Assembly: GCA_946624985.1 (NCBI GenBank)
Contig: CAMOSQ010000004.1
Coordinates: 7,034-71,033 of the forward strand
Source: an uncultured Bacillales bacterium
GTDB taxonomy: Bacteria; Bacillota_I; Bacilli_A; RF39; UBA660
Reading direction: 5' to 3'
DNA length: 64,000 bases
Position numbers and translations under genes: made by a program
Notes under the pieces: model-generated
Seen by the model: only the letters and a program-made list of their open reading frames with translations
The model's database searches: none
What the model was told of the DNA's origin: nothing
In this document: positions 2,981 through 52,463 of the stretch, one piece after another
How positions within the stretch are numbered: the first letter of the stretch is position 1
How the letters are laid out: every line of letters begins with the position of its first letter

Positions 2981-3070
2981 ATTTTGCAAATTAAAAATAA
3001 CAGATATTAAAAAACATTAAATAAAATATTAAAAAACGGTATAAACCAAAAAACATAAAATTAAAAACAA

Positions 3071-3102
3071 AAAAAATAAAAAACGAAAAAAATTTCGTTT
3101 TT
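3071..3102 (-). terminator. rho-independent terminator after the yihY-like gene
   Basis: Hairpin acgaaa-aaaa-tttcgt flanked by A and T runs. Confidence 0.6.
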
Positions 3103-3160
3103 AGAGGAATTTACCATACATAGTTTGCCTCAAGATATATACTGGTAAAATATATATCCA

Positions 3161-3994
3161 CTACTTATCATTAACATTTTCTGAAATATTATTCATATAA
3201 TTACTATAATTTTGAACATTAATAGCAATACCAATAACAAGAGAATATGACAAAATATATATCCACATCATCATAATTATTATATTAGATAAACTACCAT
3301 AAAAAATATCATAATGAGAAAAATTTTGAACATAAAAAGAATAAATAAAAGTTGAAATCATCCAAGCAATAGTTGTAAAAAAAGCACCCTTATTTGTATA
3401 CTTACTCTTAATTATTGAATCTGGAGCTAAAGTAAAAATCAACTTAATCATTATAAATATAACTACAATTGCTGTCGGCCACTTAAATAACAAATATAAA
3501 TAATAAATTTTATTACCAATATTACTATAAGACAAAATATATTTTAAAATATTATTACCAAAAGCTAACACAATCAAAGAAAAAATAACCAAAATCATCA
3601 ATAAAATAGTAATAAATAAAGATTTAATTCTTCTCCTCAAATAATTATGATGCTCTAATCCATATAAAGTATTACAACTAACAATTATAGAATGCGCACC
3701 ATTAGATGCAACAACATAACCTAAAAGGACAGAAAAACCAATATGAATATCTAAACCATTCAAAGTAATATAATTAATAAGTATACTATTAACTTCATTA
3801 GGTAAAATATCACCCATTAAATTAATAACACTATCAACAGATACATTAAAAAAAGAAGCAAAAAATCCAAACAAAGTTATAATAGGAAAAATAGAAAGAA
3901 CAAGAAAAAAAGCAATATTTCCTGGTAAAATCTTCATTTCAGGTCGTCTAATAATTTTAATTAATTTTTTTAAATACTTCTTAGTTAAATTCAT
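3161..3994 (-). CDS. YihY/BrkB (ribonuclease BN-like) family membrane protein
   Basis: Polytopic membrane protein with the N-terminal motif LPGNIAFFLVLSIFP typical of the family. Start moved to the ATG at 3994 after AAAGGA. Confidence 0.7.
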   Translation of the reverse strand: MNLTKKYLKKLIKIIRRPEMKILPGNIAFFLVLSIFPIITLFGFFASFFNVSVDSVINLMGDILPNEVNSILINYITLNGLDIHIGFSVLLGYVVASNGAHSIIVSCNTLYGLEHHNYLRRRIKSLFITILLMILVIFSLIVLAFGNNILKYILSYSNIGNKIYYLYLLFKWPTAIVVIFIMIKLIFTLAPDSIIKSKYTNKGAFFTTIAWMISTFIYSFYVQNFSHYDIFYGSLSNIIIMMMWIYILSYSLVIGIAINVQNYSNYMNNISENVNDK

Positions 3995-9387: not shown

Positions 9388-10011
9388 CTATAATATATCC
9401 TTTAAATCACTTAATTTTTCAATTTCATCAAAATTATTTTTATTCTCTTTATGCTTTGGATTCATAAATATTGGTTTTATTCCAGCATTATATGCACCCA
9501 TTACATCCAAATTATAACTATCACCTATCATAATACATTCTTCCAATTTAGTATTACCAGCAGCTTTAACAAATGCTTCTTTATTAGGTTTAATAAAATC
9601 TTCTCCTCCATATATTTCACTAAAATATCTATCTATCTTAGCTGCTTTTAATCTATTAATTTGCGGATTTCTAAACCAATTTGTTAACACAACTAACTCA
9701 TATTTTTTTGATAAATAATCTAACGTATCTATTACATCATCATCAGGCGCACTCATATATCCAATACTTTCTAAAAAATCATTCATAAAATCCATATTTA
9801 ATTTTTCTTTTATATTATTATTGATGTGCTCTAACATCTTTTCTTTATCATATTTATCATAATAATTCTCATAACTATCTATTAAATCATTTATATAATT
9901 AGGATCCTCATTATTATTATATTTTTTTAATGTATCCCTTAATGCATCAACATACTCATCCTTCCACATAATTAAAGTATTATCCAAATCAAATATTAAT
10001 TTCTTAATCAT
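9388..10011 (-). CDS. HAD-superfamily hydrolase
   Basis: N-terminal DLDNTL (DxDxT) motif and C-terminal GDSYNLDV motif. Confidence 0.75.
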   Translation of the reverse strand: MIKKLIFDLDNTLIMWKDEYVDALRDTLKKYNNNEDPNYINDLIDSYENYYDKYDKEKMLEHINNNIKEKLNMDFMNDFLESIGYMSAPDDDVIDTLDYLSKKYELVVLTNWFRNPQINRLKAAKIDRYFSEIYGGEDFIKPNKEAFVKAAGNTKLEECIMIGDSYNLDVMGAYNAGIKPIFMNPKHKENKNNFDEIEKLSDLKDIL

Positions 10012-10027
10012 ATAACCTCCAATATAT

Positions 10028-10225
10028 AAAAAAACACCATAAATGTAAGGACGATATTATCGTGGTACCACCTTACTTCCATAGTGTCTATGCTCAAAGT
10101 CTTAACGCGACTAATCGGTTTAACTCCAAATATGTAATTAATTATATAATCTTGACTAGTTTTCATCAACCACTAATTTTCTAATTACTAATTATATAAC
10201 TATAGTATTCTTCTCAGTTAAATAT
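10028..10225 (-). promoter_or_regulatory. T-box leader with probable Tyr (UAC) specifier, upstream of HAD-deoC-tyrS
   Basis: The minus strand reads AAGUAAGGUGGUACCACG (T-box consensus GGUGGUACCRCG) followed by hairpins and a U7 run. Stem I has a GAGAAG (AGAGA-like) box, and a specifier-loop UAC-A sits just before the closing helix. An extended -10 tgtTATATT is at 10240..10232. Confidence 0.75.
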
Positions 10226-10260
10226 GTATCTAATATAACACAATTTCTAAATAAAAACAA

Positions 10261-10596
10261 TTATTTATTTAAATCCTCTATTATTTTTTCAATATTTTGT
10301 CCATACTCTATAGACTCATCAAAAACAAATTCTAACTCAGGCATATGTCTGATATCAATTCTATCACACAATTTCTTTCTAATAAATCCACTAGCATCCT
10401 TTAATGCATCCAAAGTCTCTTTACGTTTAGTATCATCTAAAACTGTAAAATAAACCTTCGCAAAACTTAAATCATTTGTAACCTTTACATCAGTAATAGT
10501 AACAAATTTAATATTAGGATTCTTAACTTCAGTAGCAAGTAAATAACTTATTTCTTTAACCATACTACTAGCAATTCTTTCAATTTTAATACTCAT
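10261..10596 (-). CDS. rbfA: ribosome-binding factor A
   Basis: RbfA-typical sequence (IKIERIASSMVKEIS...VKVTNDLSFAKVYF). ATG at 10596 follows GAGGTGGA. Confidence 0.9.
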   Translation of the reverse strand: MSIKIERIASSMVKEISYLLATEVKNPNIKFVTITDVKVTNDLSFAKVYFTVLDDTKRKETLDALKDASGFIRKKLCDRIDIRHMPELEFVFDESIEYGQNIEKIIEDLNK

Positions 10597-10645
10597 GTTA
10601 TCCACCTCACAATAAGTATATCAAAAATATGAATTAATGTAAATA

Positions 10646-10680
10646 AAATAAAAAAGGGCTCTATCCTAAAATAGGCCCCT
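10646..10680 (-). terminator. rho-independent terminator after the Bro-N gene
   Basis: GC-containing hairpin ggggcctat...atagagccc followed by U6 on the minus strand. Confidence 0.65.
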
Positions 10681-10720
10681 TACAAAAAAGATTTAACTTT
10701 TTTTCTCGCATAACAAACTA

Positions 10721-11566
10721 TTAATTTAAATGTTCAAAGTCATTTTTATATTCATAACTTAATGAATTATCGCTACTAATTATTGTATCACCCAATGATT
10801 CTTCCATAGAATCTCTTGCAACTTTTGCCACACGTCCACCAGTTCTAGCAATCTTCTTATTTTCTTCTAATCCTAGTGGCCTATGTTTCTTAACTAATTC
10901 CCTCGTAGCAATCTCACCTAAATCAGTTAAAGCAACTTCTATATCTGTCATGTTATCCCTAAGAGATTCTTTTCTTAATCCTTTAAACTCTTTATAGTCA
11001 GATGCATTCATACCAGACCATTCCTTATAAATCTCATTAGTTAAAACCGCATACTCATAATTTTCTTTTATACCAAACTCTTTCCAAACATCAGTTAATT
11101 TATTTCTATTAAGAATGCCATTCAATCTTTTTTTAATCCATTCGTCATCATATCCACGCTTTTTATAATAATTAATAGCTCTATTAATAGCTAACTCAGG
11201 ATCAAACACTTCATCAATTCTCTCACTGCCTAAATTAGCCAACCAAACTTTGAATGGCTCAGCCTTTGGACTAGGAATAGATTCTATAAGTCTCAGTATT
11301 CCTTTTGTATCAAGTACATCAGTCAGATAATTTTTCCCATCTTTGTTAGATTTCATTTTCAGTTGTCCGATATTTTCGGACAACTGACTTCCCTCTTCTT
11401 TTAATTTAAGCTTTAAATCACTCCAATATTTCCTAGATCTACTAGAATTTGTCAACGCCTCTATAACATCAACAACACTGTAATAATAATCACCTTTATC
11501 TTTATCCCATATACTTCTTATTTCATTATCTTCAAATAAATTCGATATAGTTTCTAACTTATTCAT
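10721..11566 (-). CDS. Bro-N domain protein (prophage antirepressor-like)
   Basis: The N-terminus FEDNEIRSIWDKDKGDYYYSVVDVIEALT is Bro-N-like. The gene sits between the core genes rbfA and ruvB. Confidence 0.65.
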   Translation of the reverse strand: MNKLETISNLFEDNEIRSIWDKDKGDYYYSVVDVIEALTNSSRSRKYWSDLKLKLKEEGSQLSENIGQLKMKSNKDGKNYLTDVLDTKGILRLIESIPSPKAEPFKVWLANLGSERIDEVFDPELAINRAINYYKKRGYDDEWIKKRLNGILNRNKLTDVWKEFGIKENYEYAVLTNEIYKEWSGMNASDYKEFKGLRKESLRDNMTDIEVALTDLGEIATRELVKKHRPLGLEENKKIARTGGRVAKVARDSMEESLGDTIISSDNSLSYEYKNDFEHLN

Positions 11567-20796: not shown

Positions 20797-20895
20797 ACTT
20801 GCCTCCTATTTATATAATTAACAAAAACAAAATATATATACATTAATTTGATGTAAATTGTTGATTTTTAAAAATATATATGTTAAAATGTATTT

Positions 20896-21017
20896 AGGAA
20901 GCATTGCTTCATAAAATAAAAAAGGGAATACTTAACTTTGCTGTGTTGAGTACTCACCTAGAAAAAGATTTTTTAAGGCAAAGTACTAATCTTACAAAGA
21001 TTGAGTACTTTTATTTT
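20896..21017 (+). ncRNA. candidate antitoxin sRNA of TA-like module 1
   Basis: Promoter TTGATT (20861-66), 17-nt spacer, TAAAAT (20884-89). 5' hairpin gaagc-att-gcttc. Terminator gtact-aatctt-aca-aagatt-g-agtac followed by TTTTATTTT (20983-21017). Convergent with the peptide gene and antisense to its 3' UTR. Confidence 0.45.
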
Positions 21018-21039
21018 GCCTTAAAACCAATAAAAACAA

Positions 21040-21108
21040 CTACCGATATATTATAAGCAAAACAATGATAACTAATAAAGATAAAATTAATAAATCTTTC
21101 TTATACAT
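21040..21108 (-). CDS. 22-aa hydrophobic peptide, candidate type I toxin: MYKKDLLILSLLVIIVLLIIYR
   Basis: Promoter TTGATT-17-TATAAT (21190..21162). SD GGAGGG lies 7 nt before the ATG and is paired in the hairpin CCUCC-GUAA-GGAGG (21130..21117). Below the ORF-track cut-off. Confidence 0.55.
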   Translation of the reverse strand: MYKKDLLILSLLVIIVLLIIYR

Positions 21109-21211
21109 ATTATCGCCCTCCTTACGGAGGTAAGTACCCAACAATTAAGTATTCCTATAATATTATAACTTGTAATTAACTTTAAATCAACATAAAATTA
21201 ACAAAATAATT

Positions 21212-51919: not shown

Positions 51920-52124
51920 AATACCAACCGCCTTTCTTAACTCAAAATACCTGGACATATTATAACAAATTAATAAACATTAATCAAATAGTTTTTTTAC
52001 CTAAAAAGCACTTTTGTAACAAATGAAAAAGTAGATTTCTCTACTTCAAAGAAATTTATAGTCAAATTCCATTTTTTGATAATTAACATATTGATTATTT
52101 ATATAAAATATGTTATTATGTATG

Positions 52125-52243
52125 TAGTGAAGCAATACTTCATATAATAAAAAAGAGATATGCTTGATACTGGAATGTTAAGTGCTTATCTCCAAATGGT
52201 TATTTGTTGAAAAACACCAAACTCATCTGAGTCAGGTGTTTTT
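52125..52243 (+). ncRNA. candidate antitoxin sRNA of TA-like module 2
   Basis: Promoter TTGATT (52090-95), 17-nt spacer, TATTAT (52113-18). 5' hairpin ugaag-caaua-cuuca. Bidirectional terminator acacc...actca-tc-tgagt...ggtgt plus T6 (52213-52244). Confidence 0.45.
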
Positions 52244-52321
52244 TCTATCTTCTCTTGCGTCTTTTTGGAATTCCACGCACTACTAAAAGAATAAGTAGTA
52301 CTAGGACTAAATTGTAATCCA
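52244..52321 (-). CDS. 25-aa hydrophobic/polybasic peptide, candidate type I toxin: MDYNLVLVLLILLVVRGIPKRRKRR
   Basis: Promoter TTGACT-17-TATAAT, sharing ttaattacaagttataat with module 1. Upstream hairpin CCUCC-N10-GGAGG. SD GAAAGGA lies 7 nt before the ATG at 52321. An alternative overlapping 54-aa frame starts at 52349. Confidence 0.45.
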
Positions 52322-52463
52322 TAATAGATCCTTTCCAGTAATTTTTCCATATAGACCACCTCCTTACAATAACGGAGGTAAACACCTAACTATCTTGCAT
52401 ATCTCAACTACAATTATAACTTGTAATTAACCATTAAGTCAATATAAAAATAAATTTTTTGTA

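Follow-up and report, generated by a model that had tools for sequence, protein, structure and literature searches.

The closest known system to the loci described here is bsrG/SR4 of Bacillus subtilis, together with the structurally similar bsrE/SR5. In the bsrG messenger RNA (mRNA), structure probing showed that nucleotides (nt) 1-35 pair with nt 232-262 to form a long helix, P1 (PMC3834814). The Shine-Dalgarno (SD) sequence sits in a GC helix of 4 base pairs (bp) atop P1, and the antisense RNA SR4 is complementary to the 3' arm of P1 and displaces the 5' arm (PMC3834814, PMC6562991). Upon SR4 binding, nt 1-33 of bsrG become single-stranded and the SD helix grows from 4 to 8 bp (PMC3834814). 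Evidence for 5'-3' closure of the toxin mRNA in Gram-positive systems with 3'-overlapping antisense RNAs has previously come mainly from RNA probing of bsrG and bsrE. Here we describe two modules in a 64,000-nt stretch of DNA (referred to here as the window) from an uncultured Bacillales bacterium (contig CAMOSQ010000004.1, positions 7,034 to 71,033), each with a gene for a short peptide and a predicted convergent gene for an antisense small RNA (sRNA). The properties of the peptides and the anatomy of the antisense genes fit a type I toxin-antitoxin system, with the peptide as putative toxin. On balance, we consider that the modules probably belong to a so far undescribed family of type I toxin-antitoxin loci in uncultured gut Bacilli, each with an mRNA closed from its 5' to its 3' end.

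Both modules lie on the minus strand, directly 3' of a housekeeping gene and that gene's own canonical terminator (rny for module 1, clpB for module 2). Module 2 has the same order of parts as module 1 but different sequences. All coordinates below are positions of the window, on the minus strand unless the plus strand is stated.

Pairing between the two ends of the mRNA

The predicted full-length toxin mRNA of module 1 (238 nt, 20918..21155, counted from the predicted start through the U-tract) begins its 5' untranslated region (UTR) with GGAATACTTAAT (21144..21155). This segment is the 5' arm of a helix, H1, whose 3' arm GTTAAGTATTCC (20925..20936) is followed by a C and a T6 tract (20923..20918). 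Within these arms GGAATACTTAA (21155..21145) is the exact reverse complement of TTAAGTATTCC (20935..20925), giving 11 bp, or 12 bp when one U·G pair is included (21155..21144 with 20936..20925). In the predicted mRNA of module 2 (257 nt, 52149..52405), GAGATATGC (52405..52397) is the exact reverse complement of GCATATCTC (52163..52155), giving a 9-bp H1 whose 3' arm is adjoined by the T6 tract (52154..52149). An initial annotation of this DNA had reported perfect complementarity of 11 and 9 bp in the two modules; both runs are exact, although its coordinates were off by 1-4 nt.

A second helix, H2, which was absent from that annotation, adjoins H1 in both modules. In module 1, TGTTGGGTACTTACCT (21143..21128), whose final bases overlap the anti-SD sequence CCTCC (21130..21126), pairs with AGGTGAGTACTCAACA (20959..20944), and an internal loop of 7 nt (20943..20937) lies between the H2 and H1 3' arms. 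In module 2, GTTAGGTGTTT (52390..52380) pairs with AAGCACTTAAC (52187..52177) and an additional GATA pairs with TATC (52169..52166), so that the two arms of H2 span 52380..52394 and 52166..52187. The closure as a whole comprises 28 bp in module 1 and 23 bp in module 2 in minimum free energy (MFE) folds. Because H2 adjoins H1, both the MFE and the centroid folds of the full-length mRNAs are closed panhandles (MFE -75.9 kcal/mol, z = -8.8 for module 1; -80.7 kcal/mol, z = -5.9 for module 2). Chance rarely produces such complementarity: in 50,000 draws of random window segments with matching geometry, 19 gave an uninterrupted run of 11 bp or more and 159 a run of 9 bp or more. When the first 30 nt were annealed to the last 45 nt, the duplex energy was -37.5 kcal/mol in module 1 and -27.8 kcal/mol in module 2, against -6.6±3.2 kcal/mol (minimum -22) in 6000 draws of random window segments.

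The two modules were then compared with 18 further complete copies from uncultured gut Bacilli and gut metagenomes, giving a set of 20. The closure was present in the full-length MFE folds of all 20 copies (13-28 bp), with an ensemble probability for H1 of 0.67-1.00, and RNAalifold applied to plain MAFFT full-length alignments returned the closure as the consensus structure. We scored 23 closure pairs in an alignment of all 20 sequences (A5), using 500 column shuffles and partners slid by 1-3 columns as controls. Paired cells amounted to 90.7%, compared with 39-46% in the slid controls. Changes on both sides were found at 16 of the 23 pairs (8.2±1.8 in shuffles; 0/500), and 34 further pair types were counted (28.2±1.8 in shuffles; 0/500); according to the calibration of the tool, relatedness alone rarely lifts either of these two counts above shuffles. 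The 5' and 3' ends also matched their own partners best, with -31.4 kcal/mol for cognate and -21.5 kcal/mol for non-cognate combinations (permutation p≤1e-5; 20 copies). Two tandem neighbours, L218c (GGAACATTCAATA / TATTGAATGTTCC) and L218d (GGAATGTTCAATA / TATTGAACATTCC), differ by a change of CA/TG to TG/CA at two adjacent pairs, and both have a perfect 13-bp H1. The earlier observation that pairing is kept in spite of sequence differences between the two modules was extended in this way to the 18 additional copies, in which complementarity is maintained, and a 5'-3' pairing kept by compensatory change is supported across the 20 copies.

H1 also lies close behind the predicted promoter in most copies. 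The toxin-mRNA promoter of module 1 is of the sigma-70 type (21162..21190; TTGATT, 17 nt, TATAAT), and that of module 2 (52413..52442) consists of TTGACT, 18 nt and TATAAT. In module 1 the closure helix starts 6 nt after the -10 box, and in 18 of the 20 copies the distance between the -10 hexamer and H1 is 6-9 nt. The pairing therefore joins the predicted first nucleotides of the RNA to the last ones before the U-tract.

The type of mismatch tolerated in the closure indicates the strand on which it acts. G·U pairs outnumber A·C mismatches 28:5 in the closure and 14:0 in H2, which means that the pairing works on the mRNA strand only and is neither a DNA inverted repeat nor a structure of the opposite strand. 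A feature of the DNA without RNA function, such as an inverted repeat left when an inverted duplication gave rise to the antisense gene, or the termini of a small mobile element, would be compatible with the near copy of the 5' UTR sequence that the sRNA carries in the same order, and with the occurrence of the modules in multiple copies, in tandem and at non-syntenic sites. Besides the one-sided ratio of G·U to A·C, this explanation is opposed by the excess of compensatory double changes over shuffles and slid controls, and by the location of both repeats within the transcription unit rather than outside the promoters. It is also opposed by the fate of a promoter-less copy, L087b, that has lost much of its pairing; we regard a DNA-level origin of the signal as highly improbable. 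L087b is the second copy at locus L087 and probably a decaying pseudogene, with its -10 box lost, a degenerate anti-SD and H2, and the weakest closure of the set (-15.4 kcal/mol).

Further partners of the 3' arm and the Shine-Dalgarno sequence

When the 3' end is folded alone, the 3' arms of H2 and H1 (H2b and H1b) form a local hairpin directly before the U-tract, with -12.1 kcal/mol in module 1 and -8.7 kcal/mol in module 2. In module 1, the 3' arm of H1 doubles as the 3' half of this terminator-like hairpin, and the 3' arm of H2 is its 5' half. The local hairpin covaries as well: in the 20-copy alignment 77% of its cells are paired (32-45% in slid controls) and 7 pairs have changed on both sides (3.5±1.0 in shuffles; 3/500), and in a 12-copy alignment 81.9% of the cells are paired. 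Columns 299 and 301 of H1b change jointly with their partners both in the 5' arm of H1 (H1a) and in H2b, and the 5' arm of H2 (H2a) copes by means of G·U pairs. No separate terminator hairpin was found downstream of the closure in either module. With the U-tract adjoining the 3' arm, one short segment must take part in all three structures: terminator hairpin, closure and antitoxin duplex.

H1 alone has a mean of -14.3 kcal/mol and two G-C pairs close it right at the U-tract, whereas the local hairpins, with their large or irregular loops, reach a mean of only -6.3 kcal/mol; a compact canonical hairpin before the U-tract is absent in both modules. These features would be in line with the long-range helix as the working terminator, the upstream half of the stem being provided by the 5' end in cis or by the antisense RNA in trans. 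In that case, termination of transcription would be the main purpose of the closure. Yarnell and Roberts in 1999 reportedly observed that oligonucleotides annealed upstream of the U-tract can trigger transcript release in vitro. However, a loop of more than 200 nt is kinetically unlikely to close within the pause, and H2, although conserved just as well, lies away from the U-tract and would play no part in termination. The local hairpin is moreover maintained by covariation, suggesting that it is used, and termination by the long-range helix appears improbable to us.

The third partner of the 3' arm is the antisense RNA, which is complementary to it because it is transcribed from the same DNA. 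A plus-strand extended -10 promoter at a fixed distance in at least 17 of the 20 copies, and a hairpin followed by a T-run just past the toxin stop codon, define a predicted sRNA of roughly 90-120 nt that is complementary to the entire 3' UTR. In module 1 the sRNA promoter (20861..20889, plus strand; TTGATT, 17 nt, TAAAAT, TG extension) precedes a predicted transcript of ~120 nt (20896..21017, plus strand) with a 5' hairpin, an A-rich linker, the complement of H1b and H2b, a terminator hairpin (20982..21009) and then TTTATTTT. The corresponding promoter of module 2 (52091..52119, plus strand; TTGATT, 17 nt, TATTAT, TG extension) precedes a predicted sRNA of ~120 nt (52126..52245, plus strand), whose terminator hairpin (52214..52239) is followed by a T-run. 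Both predicted transcripts cover the 3' segment, the predicted overlap of mRNA and sRNA is ~100 nt in both modules, and the stem of the sRNA terminator covaries. The initial annotation had assigned three mutually exclusive partners to this one segment, namely the 5' end, a local hairpin in each module and the sRNA that covers it. Our sequence analysis agrees on all three, with the local hairpins predicted as above and covarying among the copies.

A conserved stretch is also seen just past the mRNA U-tract (20885..20912 and 52115..52142), composed of ATTNTATG, a 6-bp hairpin and then ATACATT..TAACATA. The apparently intergenic conservation is explained by the plus strand, where the stretch reads as the sRNA's extended -10 box and 5' stem-loop.

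The partner of the SD sequence is mainly the adjacent anti-SD, and the CCUCC/GGAGG pairs follow directly after H2. The local hairpin spans 21117..21130 in module 1 (CCTCC, a GTAA loop and GGAGG) and 52359..52378 in module 2 (CCTCC at 52378..52374, GGAGG at 52363..52359). The probability that the SD is unpaired is at most 0.22 in 17 of the 20 copies. When the last 50 nt were blocked in ensemble predictions, the mean over the 20 copies went from 0.17 to 0.14, and blocking the 3' arm changed the value from 0.06 to 0.01 in module 1 and from 0.11 to 0.00 in module 2. Shifts of more than 0.2 were upward in one copy and downward in two. In module 1, module 2 and L086, whose anti-SD is a complete ACCUCC, SD accessibility is predicted to drop slightly, with no family-wide trend. 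A switch of SD accessibility, in either direction, was rejected as a candidate, the ensemble predictions showing no consistent effect.

These predictions bear on a fold-back of the hok or AapA1 type, in which closure would lock the mRNA in an untranslatable form until slow 3' trimming and refolding of the 5' end free the SD for translation and antitoxin binding. Pairing of the 5' and 3' ends with coupled covariation is a hallmark of hok mRNAs (PMC9841398), and to this extent the likeness to the hok fbi closure drawn by the initial annotation stands. A local hairpin of the 5' arm (H1a/H2a, 7 bp), paired in 83% of cells in the 12-copy alignment A2, recalls the metastable hairpin of hok, and the SD becomes more accessible with the 3' arm blocked in a few copies (from 0.04 to 0.28 in L083 and from 0.22 to 0.36 in L085). 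However, with the 3' arm removed or blocked, SD accessibility does not rise over the 20 copies and drops in both window modules, the SD being sequestered by the adjacent local anti-SD hairpin. Compensatory change is lacking in the 5' hairpin, which at 0 to -4.4 kcal/mol is also weak, and covariation gives no support to a metastable hairpin at this position. No sign was seen of an alternative in which the 5' end pairs with the anti-SD. The idea of an mRNA that stays inert until trimmed is not supported, the SD not being freed in the predictions when the 3' arm is lost. The predicted antisense gene is also placed differently from hok/Sok and AapA1/IsoA1, where the overlap is with the 5' translation-initiation region: here it covers the 3' UTR with the closure arm, and 3' trimming would consequently delete the very segment that the antitoxin targets. 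We consider activation of the hok type unlikely for these modules.

The peptide open reading frame (ORF) of module 1, MYKKDLLILSLLVIIVLLIIYR (21040..21108), encodes 22 amino acids (aa) plus a stop codon that is directly followed by a hairpin, and module 1 has no mok-type leader ORF. In module 2 the toxin-like ORF MDYNLVLVLLILLVVRGIPKRRKRR (52245..52322; 25 aa plus stop) has a stop codon that abuts the sRNA terminator, as in other copies. The ATG beside the strong SD of module 2 opens a different ORF, of 54 aa and non-hydrophobic (MEKLLERIYY..., 52186..52350). It overlaps the MDYNLVLVLLILLVVRGIPKRRKRR ORF out of frame, and the latter starts 28 nt downstream, behind the weak GGAAAGGA. This 54-aa ORF could act as a mok-type leader or decoy, or it could stem from an insertion; the copies recovered include no close relative of module 2 that would decide between the two.

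The toxin promoters of the two modules are identical over 18 nt of spacer and -10 region (TTAATTACAAGTTATAAT; 21162..21179 and 52413..52430), in contrast to their strongly diverged transcribed regions, and this sequence is absent from the metagenome copies. The shared TTAATTACAAGTTATAAT may be the site of a strain-specific regulator, or it may reflect recent exchange between the module loci.

Distribution and annotation of the family

The 18 additional copies were obtained by three routes. A nucleotide profile recovered L011, a locus in one metagenome-assembled genome (MAG); a pattern scan of metagenomes in which H1 was left unconstrained recovered L082-L087, L090 and their tandem partners; and hits of a peptide profile, traced back to their contigs, added L214, L218a-d, L219, L221 and L225. 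Four loci were left out of the alignments: L211 and L213, which are cut by contig ends, L212, in which the 5' UTR is replaced, and L226, which has an internal deletion. In L212 (2500..2880), unrelated sequence with a short inverted repeat takes the place of the 5' UTR, beside a gene for an IS110-family transposase. The deletion in L226 (9900..10150) fuses the peptide ORF to H1b and removes the stop codon, the sRNA terminator and H2b; the complementarity of H1a and H1b is retained despite the deletion.

Family mRNAs are 210-257 nt long and encode hydrophobic peptides of 22-44 aa (mostly 22-27) that typically start with M-x-K-K-D. Public protein collections contain at least 27 gene calls of 39-77 aa for the family (P0001-P0027). 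Most of these are over-extended, with the conserved 5' UTR translated ahead of the real 22-27-aa peptide, and show the motifs 'GTFNSWV' (the translation of GGAACATTTAATAGTTGGGTG), 'GTFNKLGGAKLL' and 'KGGD'. Searches of ten peptides against Pfam and NCBIfam gave no family match, including to Fst in Pfam. The peptides are not homologues of Hok either, as a full hok-type reading would have had them: membership of Hok/Gef received no meaningful Pfam score, and the top NCBIfam match, to HokA, reached 11.5 bits against a cut-off of 89.

No Rfam family reached its threshold in searches at gathering and permissive settings. A sub-threshold match of the module 2 predicted sRNA (52133..52246, plus strand) to SSRC34_2 (Streptococcus sRNA 34) scored 25.2 bits across the full length of the model (gathering score 48; E = 0.058) and could be due to chance or to a very distant tie to a streptococcal antisense RNA. 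Searches with blastn against plasmid and phage collections recovered no homologue, a scan of a genome collection with a promoter and anti-SD pattern gave no match, and scans of viral contigs returned one chance match and later 120 AT-rich chance matches, with no homologue among them.

The modules occur at non-syntenic sites. The RNase Y of the window is at most 84% identical to that of any species representative, the closest all being MAGs, and exact-protein look-ups of the window RNase Y and Der gave no match. Among the loci of RNase Y relatives (L001-L080), no module was found downstream of rny, and only L011 has a copy, elsewhere in the locus. Head-to-tail tandem arrays are frequent: L218 has three copies (9968..11049) and a fourth 7 kb away (2986..3357), and L084 (1406..2121) and L087 (1..657) have two each. 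A 1-kb metagenome contig, L089 (AUXO016138534.1), is identical to module 1 across the ~440 nt inspected. Locus L214, on a 64.5-kb contig of the same whole-genome shotgun (WGS) project (AUXO011358716.1, GCA_001684375.1), has a copy between thrS and cca. This WGS project probably holds the organism of the window or a very close strain.

Proposed mechanism and comparison with known systems

In the mechanism that we propose for the closed mRNA, the first ~25-28 nt (from the predicted +1) would pair with the last ~40 nt up to the U-tract, forming stacked H1 and H2 helices with the GC-rich anti-SD/SD hairpin on top. During transcription, the 3' arm would first form the weak local H2b/H1b hairpin, which would aid termination, and would then swap to the free 5' end, a rearrangement predicted to be ~20-30 kcal/mol more favourable. 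The closed form would bury both ends of the RNA, shielding it from the 5'-end-dependent and 3'-exonucleolytic decay of Firmicutes, and would keep the SD hairpin stacked, so that the toxin mRNA would be stable yet translated only poorly. The antisense RNA might nucleate at the loop of the post-stop hairpin and at the internal loop of 7-9 nt between H2b and H1b, then invade the 3' arm and free the 5' arm, which would leave a long duplex for decay of the RNase III type. The SD helix may in addition tighten in copies with a full ACCUCC anti-SD, as for bsrG/SR4.

The computed contribution of the closure to stability is 18-34 kcal/mol. Because the layout matches that of the probed bsrG mRNA, we read the closure as a P1-type helix that would bury the termini, carry the SD hairpin and require invasion by the antitoxin. 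What the analysis establishes is the pairing with its covariation and strand specificity, and the anatomy of the locus. Shielding from nucleases, decay through RNase III and a possible effect on translation are inferences from the literature on bsrG, txpA and hok; transcript ends, toxicity, folding order, the RNases involved and the effect of the sRNA are inferred too. All structural statements rest on thermodynamic prediction and on counts of covariation.

Several points weigh against this mechanism. The local 3' hairpins have little stability (a mean of -6.3 kcal/mol within a range of -3.7 to -10.2, with loops often of 8-16 nt). They also escape a simple terminator scan that does detect the terminators of the module 2 sRNA and of neighbouring genes, which leaves the site and manner of mRNA termination uncertain. 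The 5' end of the mRNA is placed by promoter geometry only, and the 3' end by the U-tract only. The number of cells with changes on both sides (46, compared with 15.8±3.9 in shuffles) overstates the independent events, since the copies are related and some are in tandem, and the alignment was not structure-guided, so that some of the cells scored as unpaired are really bulges. The mean SD accessibility over the 20 copies, given above, barely differs between free and blocked mRNAs, and with no consistent SD change between the closed and opened forms a translational role of the closure or the sRNA is not supported in silico.

A more ambitious interpretation, which we put forward as a tentative possibility, is that the 11-13-nt segment before the U-tract is a three-state switch that serves in turn as the 3' half of a deliberately weak terminator hairpin, as a seal of both mRNA ends through pairing with the 5' terminus, and as entry track for the antitoxin, and is selected for all of these partners at once. 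In the strongest version of this idea, the terminator stem would be supplied by the 5' end in cis or by the antisense RNA in trans. If the segment were such a switch, the efficiency of termination, the longevity of the mRNA and its sensitivity to the antitoxin would all be set by one short sequence. We know of no type I system with a terminator arm shared with the closure helix, and if this arrangement is confirmed, termination, mRNA stability and antitoxin access would be encoded in ~12 nt. The family adds natural sequence variation as comparative evidence for 5'-3' closure in a Gram-positive system with 3' overlap. The covariation of one 3' segment with two alternative partners also makes it a convenient natural model for the refolding of RNA after termination.

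Of the better-known systems, hok/Sok of plasmid R1 and its enterobacterial homologues resembles the window modules in the pairing of the extreme 5' end with the extreme 3' end of the full-length mRNA, in coupled covariation with alternative partners, and in local structures during synthesis (PMC9841398). In hok, however, closure indirectly enforces sequestration of the SD, activation comes through 3' trimming and the target of Sok is the 5' region, whereas in the window modules SD occlusion is local and independent of closure in the predictions, the antisense RNA covers the 3' arm and the peptides are not homologous to Hok. The aapA1/IsoA1 system of Helicobacter pylori (and aapA3) likewise has a small hydrophobic toxin and an mRNA closed 5' to 3', with mRNA folding central to control (PMC5416894, PMC6733600). 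In aapA1 the 3' end occludes the SD region, 3' processing activates the mRNA and IsoA1 overlaps the 5' region, none of which is seen here. Fst/RNA II (par) of Enterococcus faecalis shares with the modules a Gram-positive host, convergent transcripts and an SD within a 5' stem-loop. As the closure is proposed to do here, a helix in par buries the 5' end and stabilises the toxin RNA; this par helix is local rather than 5'-3', and the window peptides are without a Pfam Fst match.

Compared with these systems, bsrG/SR4 provides the nearest parallel. Both are found in Firmicutes, with convergent genes and an antisense overlap of the mRNA 3' end of ~100 nt or more. H1 and H2 of the window modules (23-28 bp together) form a long P1-like helix with its 3' arm inside the predicted sRNA, and the SD is sequestered in a short GC helix (CCUCC/GGAGG in the window). 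There are also differences. No sequence relationship of peptides or RNAs is detectable, and the peptides of the window family are shorter. The extension of the SD helix induced by the sRNA is not consistently reproduced in silico for the window family. Finally, bsrG has a separate terminator stem-loop, SL4, after P1, whereas in the window modules the U-tract comes right after the closure arm, and this arm also provides the 3' half of the sole candidate terminator hairpin. The regulatory principle is a known one, the family is new and unannotated, and its unusual feature is the arm shared between terminator and closure.

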